From Myxococcales bacterium (lineage in GTDB: Bacteria > Myxococcota_A > Polyangia > Polyangiales > Polyangiaceae): 23,433 bases of DNA. The notes beneath the pieces were generated by a model. That model was given only the letters and a program-made list of their open reading frames with translations. It did no database searches and had not been told where the DNA came from. Both the position numbers and the translations under genes were made by a program. Shown here one piece after another: positions 1,646 to 19,648 of the stretch (position 1 is the first letter of the stretch; the number at the start of each line of letters is the position of its first letter). Where the stretch lies: the NCBI GenBank assembly GCA_016212965.1, contig JACRDA010000068.1, positions 1-23,433 on the forward strand, in the 5' to 3' direction.

Positions 1646-3914
1646 GCGGGCCGCTGCCCGCCTCGCTCACGCGGCCTCGCGGCCCGGCGATGGCGCGCGT
1701 GAGCTCGTTCAAGCTCACGCACCACGCGCCCGCGGCGCCGAGGCCCTTCAGCTCGACGACGCGCCGCTCGGCGTCCAGATGGACCCTGGCGCACGCGCGG
1801 GTCAGCGTCGTCTCGCACATGAAGAGCTCGCCGTCGGCGGCGACGCCCTGAAGGCGTGAGGCGCGGTTCACGGGCTCGCCGATGGCGCTGAACTCGCCGA
1901 GGTCGTCGGTCCCGAACGTCCCCGCAACGACCGTACCGGTCGCGACTCCGAAGCCGATGCCGACCGTTCCGAGATCCGGGATCCGCGTGGCCCACCGCCG
2001 GCGCAAATTCACGAAGAGCTCGTGGATGTCGGCCGCCGCCCGCAGCGCCGCGAGCTCGCTGCCATGGGGCTCCACGTCGAACAAGCCCATCACGCAGTCG
2101 CCGAGGAACCGGATCGGCGCCCCGCCGTGCCGGCTGATGCACTTGCCCACGATCTCGGCGAACTCCTTGATGAACAGCGCCATGACGTCGGGCTGGATCA
2201 CCGCCGATGCCGCCGTGAAGCCGCGGATGTCGGCGAAGAACGTCGTGAGCTCGATGCGCACGAAGCCTTCGAGCTGGCAGCGCGCGCGCAGGTGCGGCAG
2301 GCCCGCGCTCGGATCGACCGGCGGGACACCGAGGTCGGAGATCTGAGCCTCGGCGACGCGCCGGAGGTCCTCGGCCTCGCAGTCGATGGCGCAACGCCGG
2401 GCTTCTTGCAGTCGCTTCCGGGCCTCCGGCACGTCTCGCATGTGGAGGAGGATCTCGGCCTCCACGAGCAGCGCCCGTACGTAGTGGTAGTCGCGATGGG
2501 GGCGCAGATCGTCCCTCGCCTGCGTGGCGAAGGCGTGCGCGCTCGAGCCGTCCCCGTCGCGGCGGAGGATGAGCTGGGCGCGGAGCGTGCGCGCGATGGC
2601 GCGCTCCTTGTCCCGACCCCCTGCCGTCGCGACCAGCGTCTCGAGCTGAGCGAGGCACGCCTGCGCGCCCGCGCAGTCGCCGGCGTCGAGCCGAGCGCCG
2701 CACTCCAGGGTCCGGCTGAAGAAGACGTTGATCGGGTCGCCGACCCGCGCAAAGAGCTCGCAGCTCGTGCGCAGGTGCTTCACGCCTTCGTCCGTGGTGG
2801 AGCGCTGGGTGAGCAAGGCGCGCCCCAGGCTGCGATGGGCATAGGCGGCAGCGCGCGGGAGGATCTCGGCAGCCTCGGCAGGATTGCCCGTCAGCACGTC
2901 GAGGACCTGCAGGTCGCGGCGGTACATCGCGATGGCCTCGGTGAGCTCGCCGGCCGCGAACTTGAAGTCCCCGAGCCGCGAGAAGAGGTCCGCGCGCTCG
3001 GCGGGCATCTGCCGGCCACGCGGGCGCTGGGCGCCCGGAGGATCGGTCTCGTCCACGATCTGGCGCGCGCGCTCGAGGTACATCCACGTCTGCTGTCGAT
3101 CCGTGCGCGCTGTCGTGCGCGCGAGACTGAGCGCCGCCTGAACCTCGCCCTGTCGGTAGCCGACCTCGCGGAACGTGCCGATCGCGTCCTCGAGGTCAGC
3201 GCGCGCGGCGGCCGTCTGGCTCGCCGTGGCCAGGAGGATCCCGCGCAAGCGGAGCACGGTGCCCCGCGGGATCGCAGCCAGCGTACCGAAGTCCTGTCGC
3301 GCGATGACGGCGTCGAGCACTGCGAGACCGGCGTCGCGGTCGCCACTGCGGAGGTGCACCCGCGCCAAGGTGGTCGCTGCGAACGCGTGCAGCAAGAGGT
3401 CGAGCGTGGTCGCGTTCGACGCACGAGGCGGCCCGGCGGTGGGCCGCGCCGTCTGGCTGATCCAATCGTGGTCGGGCGCACGCCCCCAGTCCGACAGGTT
3501 CTTCGTGCGAAAGAGCCGCGCCACGTAGTGGAGCGTGGGGTCGCCCGCGCGCTCGGCCTGGGCGACGGCATGCCCGAGGACGTGGTCTGCACGCGGAAAC
3601 TTGCGCAGCTCGCCGAGCGCCCGGCTCTGGCCCAGGCGCCAGAGCACGCGCATCGTCACGCTGATCTCGTCCATCACACTCAAGGCCTGGAACGTCACCA
3701 TCGCCTGTTCGTGGCGAGCGTCGTAGATCTCGGCACACCCGAGCTCGAACCGGAGGAAGCCTGGCATCCTGCCCACGCCGGTCTTCGCGAAGACGGTTGC
3801 GACCTCCTCGGCCTGGACCTGCTCGAGCCACTGCTCGACCGTGAGCTGCCCGAGCGGGTCGCCAAGAAGGTAGGGCACGAGCAGCGGAGCGTGAGTGGAC
3901 GACGTGGACGGCAT
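1629..3914 (-). CDS. Class III adenylate/guanylate cyclase with a long N-terminal TPR-like helical-repeat region
   Basis: The C-terminal ~190 aa carry the cyclase homology domain: FFADIRGFT (metal Asp), RFLGDCVMGLF (second Asp), GFGVATGTVVAGTFG, GEPVNRASRLQG (Asn/Arg). The N-terminal ~550 aa are Ala/Leu/Arg-rich helical repeats. ATG 3914 is chosen because the in-frame extension up to 4106 uses many A/T-ending codons. Exact start is uncertain. Confidence 0.85.
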   Translation of the reverse strand: MPSTSSTHAPLLVPYLLGDPLGQLTVEQWLEQVQAEEVATVFAKTGVGRMPGFLRFELGCAEIYDARHEQAMVTFQALSVMDEISVTMRVLWRLGQSRALGELRKFPRADHVLGHAVAQAERAGDPTLHYVARLFRTKNLSDWGRAPDHDWISQTARPTAGPPRASNATTLDLLLHAFAATTLARVHLRSGDRDAGLAVLDAVIARQDFGTLAAIPRGTVLRLRGILLATASQTAAARADLEDAIGTFREVGYRQGEVQAALSLARTTARTDRQQTWMYLERARQIVDETDPPGAQRPRGRQMPAERADLFSRLGDFKFAAGELTEAIAMYRRDLQVLDVLTGNPAEAAEILPRAAAYAHRSLGRALLTQRSTTDEGVKHLRTSCELFARVGDPINVFFSRTLECGARLDAGDCAGAQACLAQLETLVATAGGRDKERAIARTLRAQLILRRDGDGSSAHAFATQARDDLRPHRDYHYVRALLVEAEILLHMRDVPEARKRLQEARRCAIDCEAEDLRRVAEAQISDLGVPPVDPSAGLPHLRARCQLEGFVRIELTTFFADIRGFTAASAVIQPDVMALFIKEFAEIVGKCISRHGGAPIRFLGDCVMGLFDVEPHGSELAALRAAADIHELFVNLRRRWATRIPDLGTVGIGFGVATGTVVAGTFGTDDLGEFSAIGEPVNRASRLQGVAADGELFMCETTLTRACARVHLDAERRVVELKGLGAAGAWCVSLNELTRAIAGPRGRVSEAGSGPLSPPA

Positions 3915-4865: not shown

Positions 4866-5165
4866 GCCCTGCCCCGCCGGGGGAGACGCTTGCCCCGCTT
4901 CGGGAGGCGGCTGCCCCGCTTCGGGAGGCGGCTGCCCCGCTTCGCGACGCGGCTGCCCCGGACCCGGCAGCGGTTGCCCGGCCGGGGCGGACGCGTGCCC
5001 CACTCGGGCCGGCGATCGCCCCGCGCCAAGGGGCGCTTACCCCGCGGCGCGCGAGAGGGGTACCGGCTGCGTCGGCTCGTGCCCCGCGCATCAGCGGCGA
5101 CGCCTGCCCGGCGGAGACGCTTGCCCCGCTTGCGGGGGCGGGCGCCCCGCTCCAGGCCGGTCGCC
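4866..5165. repeat. Degenerate tandem array with strict 21-nt phasing of a (C/T)TGCCCCG core, about 14 slots
   Basis: Cores start at 4870, 4891, 4912, 4933, 4954, 4975, 4996, 5017, 5038, 5080, 5122 and 5143. Slots 5059 and 5101 are degenerate or offset. Units 4890-4910 and 4911-4931 differ by one base. The 19-mer GGAGACGCTTGCCCCGCTT recurs at 4882-4900 and 5113-5131. Confidence 0.8.
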
Positions 5166-6360: not shown

Positions 6361-7852
6361 ATGAGGTTCGAACCAGGAGTCGTCGTGACCTCGGGGCTCC
6401 GCCTTGAGCGCTCTCTCGGCCAGGGCGGGATGGGCTTGGTGTGGGTAGCGCGCCACCTTTCGCTCGACACCGAGGTGGCGGTGAAGTTCATCTCTGCCGA
6501 GGCGCTGAACGCAGACCCTGCCCTCGCGGAGCGCTTCACGCGCGAGGCTCGCATCGCCGCCAAGATCAAGGACCCGCACGTCGTTCAGATCCTTGACCAC
6601 GGCATGACGGCTGACGGGACGCCGTTCATCGCGATGGAGCTACTCGATGGCGTGAGCCTGGCGCAGCTCATCGAGCGCTCGGGGCCGCTCACGTCCGAGG
6701 CTGCCGCGTCGATCGTGGCGCAGACAGCGGGCGCGCTGGCGAAGGCCCCACAAGCTCGGCATCGTTCACCGAGACATCAAGCCTGACAACCTGTTCCTGA
6801 CGACAACGGGCGGCGCGGCGTTCGTGAAGGTCCTCGACTTCGGCATCGCGAAGCAGCAGCAGGGCGCCGTCAGCTCCAACACCGCGACGGGCTCGGTGTT
6901 CGGGACGCCCGCCTACATGAGCCCCGAGCAACTCCTGAGCGCGAAGGGTGTCGACGCGCTCGCCGACCTCTGGGCGCTCGCGGCCGTTGCCTACGAGGCG
7001 CTCACCGGTCGCCCCCCGTTCACGGGCGAGACGATGACGGCGCTCGCCATGGCGATCTGCGCGGGGCAGTTCGCACCCGCGACCAGCACGGACCGCGAGC
7101 TCCCCACCACCGTGGACGCGTGGTTCGGTCGGGCGTTCGCCCGAGCCCCCGGCGACCGGTTCCAGACGGCGACCGAGCTGGCCGAGACGTTCTCGGAAGC
7201 GCTCGGCATCCCGGCGAGCCGGGTACCGGGCGCGCGGACGTCAACGCCATCGTTCGAGTCGCTGCCCGGCGCGACCGCTGCGCCCGTCAGGACCGTGCTG
7301 GCTGCGCCGTCGCCGCTCGGGGGCCGTTTCCTTCGGGCTTCCGTGCCGGTCGCGACCATGTCGGGGGCCACGTCCACCCTCAAGCCCAAGCGCGTCGGCT
7401 CCAGGGCCGGGCTCCTGCTAAGCGCAGGTGTGTTGGCCGCTGCGGGCATGGCGGTCGGCTTGTGGCGCATCTCCGCTGCCGTGCCAGGTGGCGCGCCGGC
7501 GGACTCGACGCCCGATGGGAGGACCGTGGCGGTTGCGCCTCCGGCATCGCAGCGGGGCGTCGTGACGACGGAACCCGCGCCCGCAACGCCAGCCACATCC
7601 GGGAACCATCCTGGGTCGAACCCAGCGGCCGCGGCAGCGTCGTCGCTCGCTTCAACAGGCTCAGCCCCGGCGGCGCCATCTGGCGCGACTGCACAGACGT
7701 CTGCTGGCGCCACTCCGGCAGCAACCGGTCCTCTACGAGCCGCCACGCCGGCGACGGCAGCGGGGACATCGCAGGGCCCGGCCAGTGGTTGCGCCAGCCC
7801 CTTCTACATGGACGCAAAGGGCATCAAGCGGGTTCGGGTGGAGTGCCTATGA
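6361..7852 (+). pseudogene. Hanks-type Ser/Thr protein kinase with a C-terminal TM segment and Ala/Pro/Thr-rich tail, interrupted by a +1 frameshift (or sequencing error)
   Basis: Frame 1 (6361-6786) gives LGQGGMGLVWVA, AVKFI and then ...ALAKAPQARHRSPRHQA*. Frame 2 continues from 6749 as HKLGIVHRDIKPDNLFL, KVLDFGIAK, GTPAYMSPEQ. The two halves join perfectly if one C is removed from the CCCC run at 6746-6749. TM segment is GLLLSAGVLAAAGMAVGLW. Alternative start is ATG 6328. Confidence 0.85.
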
Positions 7853-8882
7853 CATCGCGAATTCCTCTGATCTGAGTCTTCTGGCCCTCGTCGCGACTAC
7901 TACGCTCGCGTCGCGGGCTGCCGCCCAGCCGATCGACAAGAAGTCCTGCGCGGTGATGTTCGAAGAGGCTCAGACCGAGCGGCAGGCCGGGAAGTTGAAC
8001 GCTGCGCGCGCAGCAGCCGCGGGGTGCGCCCAGGAGGAGTGCCCGACGGTCGTGCGCAAGCAATGCGCGGCGTGGCTTGACGAGCTCAAGGCGGCGATCC
8101 CATCGATCCTGGTAACCGCCGAGGACGCGGCCGGCCGAAGCGTATCAGACGCGTTGCTGATCATCGACGGCACGACCATGGCGACGCGGCTCGAAGGAGA
8201 CGCCATCGCCCTGGACCCAGGCGAACACGAGGTGCGGATCGTGCCAAACGGCGCGCCCCCCCAAACCAAGCAGGTGGCGCTCGTCCAAGGCCAGCAACGC
8301 GCAGTGACGTTTACGGTGGCCGCACCCCCGTCCCCCCGCCGCAGCACTGAAAGTGTGCCCTCTGCCGCGAGCGCGACAGCGACAGTCGAAGACGACGACT
8401 GGGCCGGCAGCTACGCGGTGGGCAGCTCTGGCCTTCTGAGCGGAGCTAGCCTTCTGGACGTGCCGTCGCTAAGCGGCGTGTTCGCGCGGGATGGCGGCGC
8501 GGACGGGTTCCTCGGGCTCAGCGCGAGCACGCGCTTCACCTACGAGCATTTCCTCCTCCAGACGGAGGTCAGCGTTCGCGTGGGGTCCGGGCAATTTGAC
8601 AAGGAGCTCGCCTGGTCGCCCACCTTGGGACTCGGTGGTGCGGTTGCCGTCGCAAAGAACGTGGCCTTCAGCCCCATGGCACGCCTGAGCATGTTCTTCT
8701 TCAGCGGTGTGACTGCCAACCTCTTCGCACCGGTGGCCGAGTTTCCGGTTACCGTCTTTGTCGGCAAGAACGGATACGTCGAGCCCTTCATCGACATCGG
8801 CGCGGTGATCGCCGCAGCTGGCGGCAGGGCAGTCGGGGGCTTCCTGTTTGACGTCGGCTACAGGCTCGGCGTCGTGTTCTGA
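7785..8882 (+). CDS. Secreted Cys-rich/PEGA-like domain protein with a C-terminal outer-membrane beta-barrel-like domain
   Basis: Signal-peptide-like LSLLALVATTTLASRAAA|QP, followed by a 4-Cys helical segment. PEGA-like stretch: IIDGTTMATRLEGDAIALDPGEHEVRIVPNG...AVTFTV. The last ~160 aa are Gly/aromatic-rich and end in an alternating beta-signal (DVGYRLGVVF, terminal Phe). Start is problematic: GTG 7785 overlaps the kinase by 68 nt, while the ATG at 7849 (ATGA overlap with the kinase stop) is in another frame. See findings. Confidence 0.7.
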   Translation: MVAPAPSTWTQRASSGFGWSAYDIANSSDLSLLALVATTTLASRAAAQPIDKKSCAVMFEEAQTERQAGKLNAARAAAAGCAQEECPTVVRKQCAAWLDELKAAIPSILVTAEDAAGRSVSDALLIIDGTTMATRLEGDAIALDPGEHEVRIVPNGAPPQTKQVALVQGQQRAVTFTVAAPPSPRRSTESVPSAASATATVEDDDWAGSYAVGSSGLLSGASLLDVPSLSGVFARDGGADGFLGLSASTRFTYEHFLLQTEVSVRVGSGQFDKELAWSPTLGLGGAVAVAKNVAFSPMARLSMFFFSGVTANLFAPVAEFPVTVFVGKNGYVEPFIDIGAVIAAAGGRAVGGFLFDVGYRLGVVF

Positions 8883-8937
8883 TCTGGTCAGCGACGGCCA
8901 GCCTGGCCCGCGCCGGCGACAAGCACAAGGCCGCCCT

Positions 8938-8979
8938 GGCGCCCCGCTTGTGTCGGCGCGCGCCCCGCTCGTGTCGACA
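8938..8979. repeat. Two 21-nt-spaced units GCGCCCCGCT(T/C)GTGTCG(G/A)C, sharing their core with the 4866-5165 array
   Basis: CGCCCCG occurs at 8940 and 8961 (21-nt spacing) with matching GTGTCG tails. A further CTGCCCCGG lies at 9010-9018. Confidence 0.6.
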
Positions 8980-9128
8980 GAGACTCGCGTTGGCAGCAGT
9001 CGTCCCGAGCTGCCCCGGCACATTGCGCCCGCGATGTCCATTACACGGCCATTACAGTCGCGAGGGCCACGCCGGGGATGACCGAGCCGCCTTCGCTCTC
9101 GCGATGCTTGCGGTGCCCTCCGCGGAGC

Positions 9129-9178
9129 GATAGGCTCGGATAGGCTCGGATAGGCTCGGATAGGCTCGGATAGGCTCG
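9129..9178. repeat. Perfect 10-bp tandem repeat GATAGGCTCG x5
   Basis: Read directly from the sequence: five head-to-tail identical copies, about 210-260 bp upstream of the zinc-knuckle gene ATG. Confidence 0.97.
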
Positions 9179-9386
9179 GCAAGCGCGATGCGGCCGGGAG
9201 GCGCGGCGCGGGGAATCGCCAGGCGCGTGCGAATGGCTCGCGCCGCAAGATCAGAGCACCCCCGGAGAATATGGCGTATAGCTTGTGTGCTATGACGCAG
9301 GATAACCGGTTGGAGATCGACTGCGCAAATGCCCCGACGCGTGCACACGCGGAGGGCGCGAGACAGGGAGAGAACCGGAGAGAACC

Positions 9387-10124
9387 ATGGCATGCTCCGT
9401 TTGCTTTGAAGTGGGCCACAACGCTGCCACATGCCCTGTGGCGCGGCGCTGTTCGAATTGCGGCGGCGTCGGGCACTACGCGACGACTTGCCCGAGAATG
9501 CGACGATGCGGCAACTGTGGAAAGCGCGGCCATTACGCGACGACTTGCCCACATGGCGAGGCTGACCGAGTGTGCTCGCTTTGCGGCACTGCGGGCCACA
9601 ACAGGGCCACCTGCTCGTTGAGTGACGGTTACGTGGACCCAATTGAATCGGTCGTTGACCGCATCGAGGATGTGCCGATACCTCGAGGCCGCAGAGTGGT
9701 GAACCTCGAGGCCGACGGATGGCTCGGCGCCCACCTGCCCGTGTCCTTGTGGAAGGAGCGCACCGACGAATACCTTCGGGCGCTGCGCACATATGAACGA
9801 CTCCGCCCTGCCTTCAAGGCTCTCGTTACGGAGGTTCACAGGGCCTGTAACCACGTACTCTATGTGGGCCGCGCAGGCGCGAATCCGAATCTACTGCGCA
9901 GCCGCTTTGACGCGCATCGCGCGGAGCGCGGAGCGCAATTCATCAAGCCGGTATTTCGTGTCGCCACACAGCTTGCGCGCGATGCGCGTTGGGAGGTCGT
10001 CGCCATCCGGTGGATGATGCGCCGGCATGACGATGGCACCCTCTGCTGCAATAACACGGCAGCCGACGATCGCGGCCAATGGCCGGCAACCGAGGACACG
10101 GTGGTCTATGTTGTTACGTGTTGA
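9387..10124 (+). CDS. Protein with four CCHC zinc knuckles (C-X2-C-X4-H-X4-C) and a C-terminal GIY-YIG-like putative nuclease domain
   Basis: ATG is preceded by GGAGAG. Knuckles: CSVCFEVGHNAATC, CSNCGGVGHYATTC, CGNCGKRGHYATTC, CSLCGTAGHNRATC. The C-terminal HVLYVGRAGANPNLLRSRFDAH resembles the YIG-Arg-His block of GIY-YIG nucleases, with a later WEVV Glu and CCNN Asn. Codon usage is atypical for the window (many A/T-ending codons). Confidence 0.8.
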   Translation: MACSVCFEVGHNAATCPVARRCSNCGGVGHYATTCPRMRRCGNCGKRGHYATTCPHGEADRVCSLCGTAGHNRATCSLSDGYVDPIESVVDRIEDVPIPRGRRVVNLEADGWLGAHLPVSLWKERTDEYLRALRTYERLRPAFKALVTEVHRACNHVLYVGRAGANPNLLRSRFDAHRAERGAQFIKPVFRVATQLARDARWEVVAIRWMMRRHDDGTLCCNNTAADDRGQWPATEDTVVYVVTC

Positions 10125-10259
10125 GCGCGCCGCGAAGTCGACCGCGCGCGAGGTTCGCCCACCCGATGGCTGGTGCTCCGCGCCTGGGAACGCACCCGAA
10201 CGCACCGCGGCTCGTCCCGGCTCTTCCTCCCCCGGATCCTCGCTGCGCTCGTCGCCTGG

Positions 10260-10304
10260 GTCGGGCACCGTCGGGCACCCTCTGCTGAGCTCTGCTGAGC
10301 TGAG
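10260..10304. repeat. Two back-to-back perfect 10-bp tandem duplications, (GTCGGGCACC)x2 then (TCTGCTGAGC)x2 plus TGAG
   Basis: Read directly from the sequence. They end at the GTG (10304) that opens the next ORF. Confidence 0.95.
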
Positions 10305-10870
10305 TGGCTACCACGTTCTGCAGGCTGACCGTGGCTGAGAATCGCATATCAGTGATCGATGCGGCGTCGTGCCTTGGCAGGCAGAAGCAGCATGTATTTA
10401 AGGTGCTGAAGCGCCTCGGCATTGTGCCAGAGATGGCTCCTGCGTCTCGTTCGCGCGGGCAGCGCGTGGCGTACCTGTCCGAGGAGCAGTTTCGTTCCCT
10501 CGAGGCGGCGCTTGGATCTGTTGATGGACCTTCTGGCGAGCCTGGCGAGCAGGCGACGCGGCACGGCGCCTTCTACCTCATCCAACTCGAGCCGGTTCTT
10601 GAGCCCGGGCGATTCAAGCTCGGATTCGCCAGCAATCTCGAGGAGCGGCTCAGAGCCCACAAGGTGGCCGCTCCGCTGTGTCGAGTGGTTAAGACCTGGC
10701 CGTGTAGGTTGCTTTGGGAGAAGACAGCGATTGAGAGTGTTGCGCGAGGTTGCGAGCGCGTGCACACGGAGGTGTTTCGCGCTCCCGGACCCGACGGACT
10801 CGATGCGATCACGCGTCGTGCGGATGCCTTCTTCGCGTTGATGCCTGAGGTCCCGCGTCGGCCGCCCTGA
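10304..10870 (+). CDS. HTH-like N-terminal domain plus GIY-YIG superfamily (T5orf172-like) domain protein
   Basis: The N-terminal ISVIDAASCLGRQKQHVFKVLKRLGI looks like a helix-turn-helix. The C-terminal GAFYLIQLEPVLEPGRFKLGFASNLEERLRAHKVAAP...WEKTAIE...HTEVF fits the GIY...(K/Y)(I/L)G...R..H...E pattern. Start is uncertain (GTG 10304, 10331 or 10352). GC is lower than in the core genes. Confidence 0.7.
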   Translation: MATTFCRLTVAENRISVIDAASCLGRQKQHVFKVLKRLGIVPEMAPASRSRGQRVAYLSEEQFRSLEAALGSVDGPSGEPGEQATRHGAFYLIQLEPVLEPGRFKLGFASNLEERLRAHKVAAPLCRVVKTWPCRLLWEKTAIESVARGCERVHTEVFRAPGPDGLDAITRRADAFFALMPEVPRRPP

Positions 10871-11191
10871 AGTCAGCGATAGAGCCGCTCGGCATCGAGC
10901 CCCTCGGCTGCCGCGAACCGCGAACCCCATCACGGACTTTCCCGATCGCTCGAGCGCCCTCAACGCCTCTGCTTCGCCCCAACGCCCCAACGCCTGCTCG
11001 TCCCGTGCGTCGTGCCCCGTGCCCGACACCGATTCGACACGCGGCCCTCCGGCCCTCACGCGTGTCAGCTCGTTGTAGCCGCTCGGCACTCAGCGCTCGC
11101 GCGGACGGCCGTGACGCCGCTGCCGCCCTCCCGCCCCGTCACCGCCCGTCGCCGCCCACCCCGAACCCACCCCCCCTGAGCCCCCCCTGAG

Positions 11192-11386
11192 CCCTGGGGC
11201 AGGGGCGTGCGGTTCGGCGCGGCATGGGAGGGTCCCGATGCGAGCGCGAGGACGCAGGCGGACGAGCTCGCAACCGCAACGCACCGGCTGCCTGCGCCCG
11301 AGCGCGAGCCAGGGGAGGGGCCCATGCCGCGCCGAACCGCACGCCCCTGCCCCAGGGCGATGCCGCACGCCCCTGCCCCAGGGCGA
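11192..11386. repeat. 166-bp palindromic element with perfect 37-bp inverted arms, plus a 24-nt tandem re-duplication of the right end
   Basis: Left arm CCCTGGGGCAGGGGCGTGCGGTTCGGCGCGGCATGGG (11192-11228) is the exact reverse complement of 11321-11357. The 92-bp interior is itself partly self-complementary. CCGCACGCCCCTGCCCCAGGGCGA occurs at 11337-11360 and again at 11363-11386, ending exactly at the stop codon of the M28 gene. Confidence 0.9.
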
Positions 11387-12711
11387 CTAGCCTCGAAGGC
11401 TCTCCGGCATGTGCGCCAGCACCGCCACCGCAACCGCGAACCCGGCGAGCGCGTGATCGAGATCTTCGCGCGACACGTTCTCGAGGACGTCGTTGGCCGA
11501 ATGGTGGAAGTCGAAGTAGCGCGTCGCGTCCTGGCGGAGGTCGAAGAACGGCACGCCGAGGCCGCGGAGCGGCTGGATGTCGACGCCGCCGCGGGCGCCG
11601 CCGGGGTCGAGGGCGATGCCGAGGGGGCCCAGCGCGGTGTGCAGGTGGCGGGCGGCCGCCGATTGGGCCTGGCCCTCGGGCATGCGCAGGGCCCAGGGCT
11701 TGCCGTCGCCCTGATCGGCCTCGAGCGCGACGAAATGCTGGCCGGCCTCGTCCTTGTGCGCCGCCGCGTAGGCGTGGCCGCCGCCGCTGCCGAGCTCCTC
11801 GTTGGCGAAGAGCGCGATGCGGACGGTGCGGCGCGGCCGGACCGGGAGCTCCGCGACGAGGCGCGCGGTCTCGAGCGCGAGCACGCAGCCGGCGCCGTCG
11901 TCGAGCGCGCCGCGCCCGAGGTCCCAGGTGTCGAGGTGCGCGCCGAAGAGCACGATCTCGTGGGCGAGGTCGGTGCCCGGCACCTCCGCCAGGACGTTGT
12001 GCCCGGTGCCGCTCGGCAAGGAGCGGCAGCCGAGCTCGAGCCGCAGGCGCACGCGCCGGCCCGAGGCCGCGAGGCGCGCGAGCAAGTCGCCGTCCGGCAC
12101 GCACACCGCGGCCGCGGGGATCTGCGGGGCGTCGGACTCGTAGAAGAGCATCCCGACGTGGGGCGCGCGCGTCGCGCTCGTGGCGATGGAGCGCACGAGG
12201 CAGCCGACCGCGCCGAGGCGCGCGGCGTGCGAGGTCGCGTGCGCCCGGAGGTAGCCGCCGTGGTTGTAGCCCGTGCCGTCGCGCAGGCGCGGCATCAGGT
12301 GGTGGATGTAGACGATGCGGCCCTCCACGCCCGCGCGCCCGAGCTCTTGCAGGGCGTCGAGCGACGGTACGACCACGAGCTCCGCCTCGAGCCCGCCCGC
12401 CGGGGTCGGGACGCTGCCGCCGAGGGCGGCGACCACGATCGACTGGCACGTGGGCTCGAGGATCTCGGCGCGCGCCGAGCCGCGCTCCCAGCGGGTGCAT
12501 TCGGCGGGCTCGGTGCGCACGTTCGCGAGCCCGGCCCGGCCCGCGGCCGCGAGGGCCCACGCGACGCCCGCGGCCTCGCCGGGGGTGCCGGTGAAGCGCG
12601 GACCCACGTCGTCGTTGAGCGACACGAGCAGATCCCAGGCGCGCGAGGCGTCGCGCGCCCCTTGCCGCAGCTGACGGAGCCAGGGCGCCTCGTGGGAATG
12701 GCGGTGGGGCA

Positions 12712-18638: not shown

Positions 18639-19648
18639 TCAGCGCGCCTCCGGTGCGTCCGCCGCCGCGCGGCGCGCGCGCGTCCCGAGCGTCACGAGCC
18701 CGGTGCCGTGCGGAGCCTCGGGCTGGATGGTCGTGTGGGCGATGCCGTGCGCCGCGCGCAGGGCGCGCCCGGCCGCACCGGCCACCACGGTGCCGTGGTG
18801 ACCCGCGGCGATGACGACGTGGACCGTGAGCACGTTGAAGCCTTCCGAGATCGACCACACGTGCAGGTCGTGAAAGTCGGCGACGCCGGGCACCTGCCGC
18901 AGGGTCGCCTCGACCTCGTGCACGTCGATCTCGACCGGGGTGCCCTCCATCAGCACGTGGGCCGTGTCGCGCAAGAGGCGCCAGCCCCCGTAGAGCACGA
19001 GCAGCCCGATGGCAGCGCTCGCCACCGCGTCGGCGCGCGTCGAGCCGCCCGCGAGCATCACCGCGCCGGCCGCGATGGCGCCCACGCTCCCGAGCCCGTC
19101 CGACAGGACGTGCAGGAAGGCGGCGCGCGTGTTCGGGTTGTGGCTGCCGCGCGACAGGATGAACGCCGAGGCCGCGTTGACGACGAGGCCGGCGACGGCC
19201 GTGGCGAGCATGGGCGCGGCGGCGATCTCGGGCGGCTCGGCCCAGCGCACCACGGCCTCCTTGCAGACCCAGATGGCGACGAGCGCGAGCGCGATGCCGT
19301 TGACGAACGCCGCCAGCACCTCGGCGCGCCGGAAGCCGTAGGTGCGACGCCGCGTGCGATCGCGGACGGCGATGCGCTGGGCGGCAATCGCGAGGCCGAG
19401 CGCGGCCGAGTCGCTCAGCATGTGCCCGGCGTCGGCCACGAGCGCGCGGCTACCGGTGAAGAAGCCGACGGCCGCCTCGACCAGCATGAAGCTCGCCGTG
19501 AGCCCGAACGCCCAGGCGAGCCGGCGGAGCGGCGTCGCACGGTGATCGTGCCCATGCCCGTGGGCGTGTTCGTGCTCGTGCTCGTGCTCGTGCTCGGGCC
19601 CGTGCTCGTGCTCGGGCCCGTGCTCGTGCTCGTGCGGGCGGTCGGGCA

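Follow-up and report, generated by a model that had tools for sequence, protein, structure and literature searches.

A CCHC-knuckle protein with a GIY-YIG-like core beside a solitary T5orf172 protein in a Myxococcales contig: candidate free-standing nucleases without a conserved link

Zinc-finger arrays fused to GIY-YIG or T5orf172 nucleases have been described in phage homing endonuclease genes (HEGs), where the variable tandem DNA-binding repeats are reshaped by inter-repeat recombination (PMC10448857). Zinc modules also accompany GIY-YIG domains in the plant EFFECTOR OF TRANSCRIPTION (ET) factors (PMC6585611) and in Penelope-like elements (PMC8557442), and domesticated T5orf172 relatives serve as repressors (PMC10448857). 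Here, two adjacent genes on a contig of a Myxococcales metagenome-assembled genome (MAG) are compared with these systems; the window analysed is the whole contig, JACRDA010000068.1, of 23,433 nucleotides. ORF1 (9387–10124, + strand) encodes a 245-aa protein in which an array of CCHC zinc knuckles is joined to a core that probably represents a divergent GIY-YIG domain. ORF2 (10331–10870, + strand) encodes a solitary 179-aa protein with a helix-turn-helix (HTH)-like region and a T5orf172 domain. The pair is best explained, with a probability of roughly 0.55, as two independently acquired, free-standing nucleases of the GIY-YIG type, similar to homing endonucleases, which lie side by side by chance and form no conserved system.

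Among the described proteins, the ICP1 phage HEG products Gp53, Gp121, Gp130 and Gp174 and their relatives (Barth et al., 2023; PMC10448857) resemble ORF1 in having a nuclease core at one end and zinc repeats at the other. Phage T5orf172 HEGs share with ORF1 the 'beads on a string' arrangement of the repeats and the free-standing, modular genes, and the variable number of knuckles in ORF1 relatives, together with a patch of exchange between knuckles 2 and 3, fits this design. The repeats themselves differ, being CapR/DUF723/DUF4397 fingers of the CxxC...CxC type in the phage proteins and C-X2-C-X4-H-X4-C knuckles in ORF1, and the score of the ORF1 core stays below the threshold of the T5orf172 model. 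ORF2 has the T5orf172 domain in common with the phage HEGs but carries an HTH-like domain instead of zinc fingers. In the ET factors, variable cysteine-rich ET repeats accompany the GIY-YIG nicking domain (PMC6585611), and the Penelope-like-element endonucleases combine GIY-YIG nicking with CCHH and CX2-5CxxC fingers (PMC8557442). Both are eukaryotic and differ from ORF1 in zinc motifs, domain order and context, which is transcription regulation for the former and retrotransposition for the latter. The original prediction, made from the window alone, held that no bacterial system with this architecture had been described. That claim holds only in part, as zinc-finger fusions to GIY-YIG and T5orf172 domains are on record and giant-virus proteins with CCHC and GIY-YIG annotations also appear among the Foldseek matches.

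ORF1 begins with four tandem C-X2-C-X4-H-X4-C zinc knuckles (9393–9614, + strand), which were recovered as four exact units by regular expression (residues 3–16, 22–35, 41–54 and 63–76). The protein also exceeds the gathering threshold of Pfam zf-CCHC PF00098 (26.8 bits against a cut-off of 20.8; E = 5.1e-6), confirming the four textbook knuckles originally proposed. The closest PDB sequence to the array is yeast Air2 (E = 0.002), and the top Foldseek matches of ORF1 in the PDB are the knuckles of Trypanosoma brucei RNase D and Lin28. Air2, Lin28, the retroviral nucleocapsid and T. brucei RNase D all have a knuckle spacing identical to that of ORF1, and RNase D is an example of knuckles steering a nuclease. 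These tandem-knuckle binders differ from ORF1 in that all are eukaryotic or viral and none is joined to a GIY-YIG-type core. CCHC knuckles typically bind single-stranded DNA or RNA and are a normal component of retroviral nucleocapsids and eukaryotic binders. Those of ORF1 are accordingly predicted, from their sequence, to bind zinc and single-stranded nucleic acid.

Knuckles 2 and 3 share the peptide GHYATTCP, and positions 9474–9493 and 9531–9550 are identical at 19 of 20 nucleotides, a match that the repeat finder lengthens to 24 nt (92% identity, 57 nt apart). The recent internal duplication that had been read from this similarity is overstated, since knuckles 2 and 3 are no closer to each other over their entire 42-nt units (28/42) than are knuckles 1 and 4 (29/42). 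The 3' halves of units 2 and 3 agree at 19 of 21 positions, with the rare ACT codon in both, against 9 of 21 in the 5' halves. This pattern suggests a patch of local conversion or exchange rather than a recent duplication of a whole unit. Residues 77–135 (9615–9791, + strand), delimited by alignments and by an AlphaFold2 (AF2) model with a predicted local distance difference test (pLDDT) score of 84–98, form a linker and helical region. It contains the motif D-x3-P-x-G...W112, which is kept in close homologues, and a short strand is predicted at residues 113–114.

The remainder of ORF1 is a conserved core domain (residues 136–245; 9792–10121, + strand), defined by 111 family representatives, the AF2 model (pLDDT 92–98) and hhalign. 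A protein 100% identical to ORF1 has been deposited from a Myxococcales MAG under the name 'hypothetical protein'. Only four homologues, with 36–58% identity and one to five knuckles, came out of a word-indexed search of 5.8 billion proteins; genome and metagenome scans added a copy with four knuckles from a Planctomycetota MAG and one with five from a soil metagenome. An exhaustive hidden Markov model (HMM) search, for which the query was the C-terminal part of ORF1 without the knuckles, gave the 111 representatives (clustered at 50% identity), and 52 had E < 1e-10. About 11 of the 111 carry knuckles (one to five). Most members are instead about 200 aa long; in these the core lies close to the N-terminus and is followed by another conserved tail, of 55–60 aa. 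Others have other extensions. The occurrence of the same core with zero to five knuckles or with another tail indicates a mobile module that is paired with alternative accessory domains. In the set P0138–P0234, most of whose members are about 200 aa long, a conserved N-terminal segment, '(L)A(Y/F)D(L)...AP(R)', and the tail, '...P.t..dv..iA.eva...l..al.pisRP....W', are both unannotated. No separate bona fide GIY-YIG domain was present in the 20 longer members scanned over their full length. PF21740 (DUF6866_C) matched three core sequences weakly. The proteins of this family are listed as hypothetical in all sources and none has a Pfam domain; the family is rare, unannotated and without a Pfam model.

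Within an alignment of 108 core sequences at only 20–30% identity, Y159, G161, R173 and E203 are invariant. Conservation reaches at least 95% at H151, R162, L219-C220, N223 (96%) and I/V240-Y241. G230 is a further conserved residue, and H177 is kept in 78% of the sequences, with Arg at this position in 18%. The AF2 model built from these 108 sequences has a pLDDT of 89 overall and 92–98 in the core; a first model from five sequences (pLDDT 53) was discarded in its favour. The core is predicted to run from a helix ending in H151 to a strand with YxGR, a helix with R173 and H177, a second strand, a helix with E203 at its start, a loop with N223 and a final strand with I/V240-Y241.

These features suggest that the ORF1 core is GIY-YIG-like and probably a divergent member of that family. 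The string VLYVGRAGANPNLLRSRFDAH, in which the original prediction had recognized the YIG-Arg-His core of GIY-YIG nucleases, is present in the sequence, and the profile comparison falls on the segment so named. Y-x-G, R-x3-H, E and N make up the accepted GIY-YIG catalytic set in the passage of PMC8557442 that cites Van Roey (2002), and in the AF2 model of the ORF1 core they sit on the corresponding secondary-structure elements. The canonical reference was an alignment of I-TevI (1MK0/1LN0) and UvrC (1YD6/1YCZ), whose sequences were verified by a PDB search. Against it, the ORF1-core profile gave an hhalign probability of 76% (E = 2.2e-5) on VYVG...RW..H, exceeding the ORF2 family, which served as positive control (17%, E = 1.4e-3). 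The observed score of 31.8 compares with 13.9 for the reversed profile and at most 18.4 for 150 column shuffles. Y159 and G161 lie on strand 158–164, and R173 and H177, on helix 167–181, are paired by hhalign with R27 and H31 of I-TevI. E203 forms the N-terminus of helix 202–215 and N223 lies in the loop that follows; from their order and spacing they may be the counterparts of I-TevI E75 and N90, at positions where the alignment is without significance. The beta-alpha-beta-alpha order of the model is that expected after the YIG strand. Scattered members also match Pfam models weakly (MUG113, 1.5e-4; T5orf172, 5e-4; GIY-YIG, 0.014–0.034; GIY_YIG_2, 0.023), so that four models of the GIY-YIG clan are touched, and no other clan is matched as consistently except DUF6866_C. 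Giant-virus proteins with a GIY-YIG annotation among the Foldseek matches in BFVD point the same way.

Several results weigh against this assignment. The hhalign match spans only 21–29 columns, and the core gave nothing at threshold against Pfam, NCBIfam, PHROG or PADLOC. A sequence-profile search of the PDB with the ORF1 core returned no GIY-YIG chain. Foldseek against the PDB, in a search that depends on sequence order and used the full-length ORF1 model, gave no match at E ≤ 0.001 and no GIY-YIG structure among the best 50 of 84 matches (E ≤ 10); in those 50 the knuckles alone account for the matching, despite the confident model. The GIY tyrosine, normally some 10–11 residues before YIG, is absent from the ORF1 family, and the segment in question is predicted to be helical. 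Homology between the ORF1 core and the ORF2 domain was considered and rejected, as hhalign gave a probability of at most 2% on an 11-column WE..AI motif only; HMM-against-sequence scores were about 0–5 bits. Compared with I-TevI and UvrC, ORF1 is alike in V-Y-x-G...R-W-x2-H (VYVG...RWKRH in the reference) and in the Glu and Asn downstream. It is unlike them in that the GIY tyrosine is replaced by the helix ending in the conserved H151, 8 residues before YIG, that the loop from YIG to the Arg is 4 residues longer, and that a conserved 'S-x-I-Y' strand lies at the C-terminus.

A bolder reading, which we hold only tentatively and consider doubtful, is that the ORF1 family is an unrecognised bacterial branch of the GIY-YIG nucleases in which the GIY strand has been replaced and CCHC arrays steer the nuclease. 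The C-terminal S-x-I-Y strand would then possibly be the displaced GIY strand, by circular permutation. Profiles with this strand moved to the front were run against the ORF2 family and canonical GIY-YIG; the strand aligned to GIY with the right spacing at a local score of 29.2, against 31.8 for the native order. In global mode the permutation scored 22.2 against 20.9, a marginal gain, and the reversed-strand control 17.6. On the same reading the CCHC arrays would be a modular reader of single-stranded nucleic acid, and ancestry might possibly be shared with giant-virus proteins annotated as CCHC and GIY-YIG. Such proteins, from the Klosneuvirinae, are the best structural matches of the whole ORF1 model in a Foldseek search of BFVD (E = 5e-5 to 9e-3). 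They include A0A1V0SGW8 and A0A1V0SFP8 of Hokovirus, A0A1V0SLJ9 and A0A1V0SKB8 of Klosneuvirus and A0A5K0U8Q9 of Yasminevirus. Several carry a GIY-YIG annotation and show 27–30% identity over the knuckle array of about 80 residues, and two match the ORF1 model over 163–180 columns. They differ in coming from viruses of eukaryotes, and with TM-scores of 0.1–0.34 only parts superpose.

The second gene is more readily placed. Its reading frame is open from a GTG at 10304 (188 aa), and the start is probably the GTG at 10331, because this is where the alignment of the family starts and because a protein of 179 aa with 99% identity is on record. The protein comprises an N-terminal HTH-like region (10340–10513, + strand) and a T5orf172 domain of the GIY-YIG clan (10571–10834, + strand), the latter delimited by invariant columns and by the PF10544 matches of the family. 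Taken alone, ORF2 stays below the threshold of PF10544 (14.1 bits against a cut-off of 20; E = 0.071). Among its relatives with 47–99% identity, 43 of 51 match the model at E < 0.01 (best E = 1.8e-6), and through them the earlier T5orf172-like assignment is supported. The HTH part is the weaker one: the family profile reaches only E = 0.013 with the HTH-like repeats of PDB 2LVS, a few members match IF2_N or HTH_Tnp_1, and the first 60 or so residues may thus be HTH-like. The stretch AFYLIQL...GRFKLGFASNLEERLRAH...WEK quoted in the prediction is present. Invariant in the family are F90-Y91-L92-I93, K105-x-G107, R115-x3-H119, W138-E139 and T155-E156-x-F158, residues in keeping with the GIY-YIG clan, and hhalign pairs LGFA..ERLRsH of the family with VGSA..KRWKRH of I-TevI.

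More than 720 relatives of ORF2 were found at E ≤ 1e-3, typically 172–177 aa long and about 50% identical. They occur in Planctomycetota, Chloroflexota, Gammaproteobacteria, Cyanobacteria, Desulfobacterales and Alphaproteobacteria. This large, phylum-hopping family consists of solitary proteins of about 174 aa, and ORF2 is an ordinary example. In each of nine loci the gene stands by itself, with different neighbours: it follows a phage-type integrase, lies between tyrS and alaS or comes after a reverse-transcriptase (RT) gene; elsewhere a UDG gene lies downstream, or BrnT or MazE-PIN nearby. In one Desulfobacterales lineage (L011, 4266–6549; L012; L013), the gene follows a 553-aa RVT_1 RT gene after 74 nt, with MazE-PIN and BrnT modules close by. 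Positions 3500–7500 of L011 contained no Rfam family at gathering score, and hence no detectable group-II-intron RNA. Flanking DNA is not conserved across the ORF2-family loci, save for GCAG(R)CTGACC in the closest relatives. This motif stands directly 5' of the start in the window (10318–10330) and in L016 (2536–2548) and L017 (306–318). In L018, where the gene starts at 1020, it lies about 50–75 nt upstream, with a palindromic version, GTCAGTCTGC-TAT-GCAGGTCTGT, about 50 nt upstream. The carriers are the window and 75%-identical relatives of ORF2. The motif may serve the HTH domain as an operator or, should translation begin at the upstream GTG, may encode a conserved extension of the N-terminus.

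The two genes had been proposed to form one module, either a defence or abortive-infection system, in which a nuclease sensing single-stranded nucleic acid works with a DNA-binding GIY-YIG partner, or a homing cassette. Such a module would agree with their common strand, their distance of 180–206 bp, their common low-GC islet and the nuclease-type domains in both. The original prediction named an absence of linkage elsewhere as grounds for refuting it, and tblastn of both proteins against 24 fetched loci (L001–L024), with flanks of 1.5–10 kb for most, found just that. Homologues of ORF1 were located in L001, L002–4, L005, L006, L015 and L024, with more distant ones in L019–22, and those of ORF2 in L007/8, L009/10, L011–13, L014, L016, L017, L018 and L023. 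None of the seven independent ORF1 loci (plus two more distant) or the nine ORF2 loci contained both, that is, 0 of 16 independent loci, and the two-gene module was rejected on this ground. Several of the ORF1-homologue contigs are short, so that linkage beyond 2–6 kb is still possible there, a point that counts against chance adjacency. The families also differ greatly in size (five close ORF1 homologues and 111 clusters in the wider ORF1 family, against more than 720 ORF2-family proteins). The spacer (10125–10330) is 206 bp long, contains several twofold 10-nt tandem duplications and has no terminator or promoter consensus, and its length argues against operon-like coupling. Some ORF1 homologues do lie near conflict-type genes: an RHS/SpvB/TcdB toxin with Tox-ART-HYD1 and DUF6881 in L006 (4996–10827), a YAcAr (SLOG-related) gene in L002 (1063–1491) and a MazE antitoxin in L001 (66–344). 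None of these neighbours is conserved between loci. A known defence system was likewise rejected, because none of the 5,027 models of PADLOC-DB v2 gave a family for either protein at E ≤ 1. The surroundings in the window are housekeeping genes. A cooperating module is therefore very improbable, and what looks like a two-gene system comes down to chance adjacency.

Two further alternatives concern the genes singly. Each might be a stand-alone anti-phage or anti-plasmid nuclease rather than a selfish element of the homing type, as its sporadic distribution, foreign composition and chromosomal location outside phages and plasmids would allow; some copies lie beside toxin–antitoxin modules, integrases and RHS loci, as defence genes often do. 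We consider this improbable, given the empty PADLOC search, the want of a conserved methylase or immunity gene nearby for self-protection and the many copies that sit between core housekeeping genes and not in islands. The other alternative, unlikely but to be taken more seriously, is that the ORF1 core is not a nuclease at all. It could have a new fold or activity, be a CCHC binder of RNA or single-stranded DNA acting as regulator or chaperone, or be an inert HEG derivative like CapR. The failure of structure and Pfam searches to find a GIY-YIG match and the missing GIY tyrosine speak for it, as do the resemblance of the knuckles to those of the RNA and single-stranded DNA binders Air2 and Lin28 and the precedent of domesticated T5orf172 repressors (PMC10448857). 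Opposed to it is the retention of Y, G, R and E in all, and of N in 96%, of so diverged a set of sequences, with the R-x3-H spacing of GIY-YIG on matching structural elements. Inert derivatives normally lose residues of the catalytic type, and the hhalign match to canonical GIY-YIG (E = 2e-5) had clean controls.

The reading of two independently acquired homing-endonuclease-like nucleases agrees best with the composition and distribution of the genes. The backbone of the contig has a GC content of 0.70–0.77, which dips to 0.63–0.66 from about 8500 to 11,000 in a sliding-window profile. The low-GC islet (8883–11386) averages 0.673 against 0.728 elsewhere in the window, and GC at third codon positions is 0.68–0.70 in ORF1 and ORF2 against 0.81–0.98 in the flanking genes, in support of the islet originally reported. 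In other genomes the ORF2-family gene has a GC content below that of its flank in all nine loci, and the ORF1-family gene in five of eight (for example, 0.35 against 0.57). The ORF2 family keeps about 50% identity across phyla. Both genes thus have the traits of free-standing HEGs, being sporadic, solitary and foreign in composition, with neighbours that differ from locus to locus. Other observations tell against a selfish homing origin. Phage or plasmid origin was tested by tblastn of INPHARED (50,697 phage genomes) and PLSDB (72,556 records) and rejected, as no relative of ORF1 or ORF2 was found, a further difference from the phage HEGs. The 2.9 million contigs of IMG/VR contained no ORF1 relative and the ORF2 family once. 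This near-absence means that the classical life-style of a phage HEG is not demonstrated, and no occupied site could be matched with an empty one.

We infer catalysis, substrate and a selfish life-style for both proteins along the following lines. The ORF1 core would retain the second half of the GIY-YIG active site, joined to exchangeable nucleic-acid-binding modules. Its four CCHC knuckles would be strung like beads, their number drifting through inter-repeat recombination, and the array would bind a specific nucleic-acid site, most likely single-stranded or unwound DNA, or RNA. In ORF2, the HTH-like domain would position the T5orf172 nuclease on DNA, which it would then cut. The GIY-YIG-type centre would nick or cut using one metal ion, and the genes would be maintained either by selfish spread in the manner of homing endonucleases or through use as weapons by mobile elements in conflict with one another.

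The islet lies between an outer-membrane-protein (OMP)-like gene on the left (7785–8882, + strand) and the 3' end of an M28 peptidase gene on the right (11387, − strand). Its borders are compositional, at about 8500–11,000, and not sharply set; the left one is uncertain because the OMP-like ORF, with a GC content of 0.66, is already below the backbone. That ORF encodes 365 aa without a Pfam match, and its C-terminus, ...GYRLGVVF, resembles the endings of outer-membrane beta-barrel proteins. Upstream of the islet lies a Ser/Thr kinase gene in addition to the OMP-like ORF; downstream, on the opposite strand, are genes for M28, M17 and M20 peptidases, fumarase and thiolase, followed by EamA and GNAT genes. 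The surroundings are those of housekeeping genes, with no defence island and no prophage. No integrase or phage gene was found among the scanned neighbours, there was no tRNA gene and there were no direct repeats at the islet borders, and a promoter and terminator scan together with Rfam gave nothing for 8500–11600.

The islet is also rich in short tandem repeats. A 10-nt unit, GATAGGCTCG, forms a perfect 5.1-fold tandem repeat (9129–9179), 208 bp upstream of ORF1, which was absent from all other fetched loci and is possibly a protein-binding array or a product of slippage. Two perfect copies of GGAGAGAACC (9367–9386) stand directly before the ATG of ORF1. Upstream of ORF2, two perfect copies of GTCGGGCACC (10260–10279) are followed by 2.2 of CTCTGCTGAG (10280–10301); TRF also lists 10-nt arrays at 10188–10206 and 10208–10227, which our script did not score as perfect two-copy repeats. 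The 23-kb window has four perfect 10-nt tandem duplications, and all of them fall within the 2.5-kb islet, against a Markov expectation of 0.004, as do 11 of the 20 perfect tandem duplications with a period of 7–11 nt. Slippage, fill-in of staggered nicks or binding-site arrays may be the cause of the 10-nt duplications. A near-perfect hairpin of about 170 nt (11191–11386) occupies the right-hand end of the islet and directly adjoins the M28 peptidase gene on its 3' side. Its 74-nt arms are 81% complementary, and its RNA free energy is −162 kcal/mol (z = −9 relative to shuffles). A third copy of the 22-nt end of the arm, GCCCTGGGGCAGGGGCGTGCGG, occupies 11363–11384, and the 22-mer occurs nowhere else in the window. 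The hairpin had no Rfam match; it may act as a large terminator or represent a palindromic mobile element. Two further repeats, the hexamer GTGCTC in 15.7 copies (19542–19635) and a 21-nt unit in 4.4 copies with a 42-nt super-period (4869–4960), lie in regions covered by long ORFs and probably encode repetitive peptides.

What sets ORF1 apart is a type of finger unusual for bacteria on an unannotated core family; the design of a zinc-module array joined to a GIY-YIG-type core is known. ORF2 is one more member of a kind already known. Catalogues of defence systems should not list the pair from this single locus. The ORF1 family merits a Pfam-style description, although not as a new system. If the tentative reading of the ORF1 family as an unrecognised GIY-YIG branch were true, its members would be free-standing nucleases of a new class, selfish or used in conflicts. 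Should the ORF1 core prove to be an active nuclease of the GIY-YIG type, bacteria would use CCHC arrays as a targeting module for nucleases, and the design of zinc-finger beads plus GIY-YIG would be extended to a new type of finger and a new core family of 111 clusters. A compact nuclease or nickase for single-stranded targets, with its specificity encoded by the repeats, could follow.

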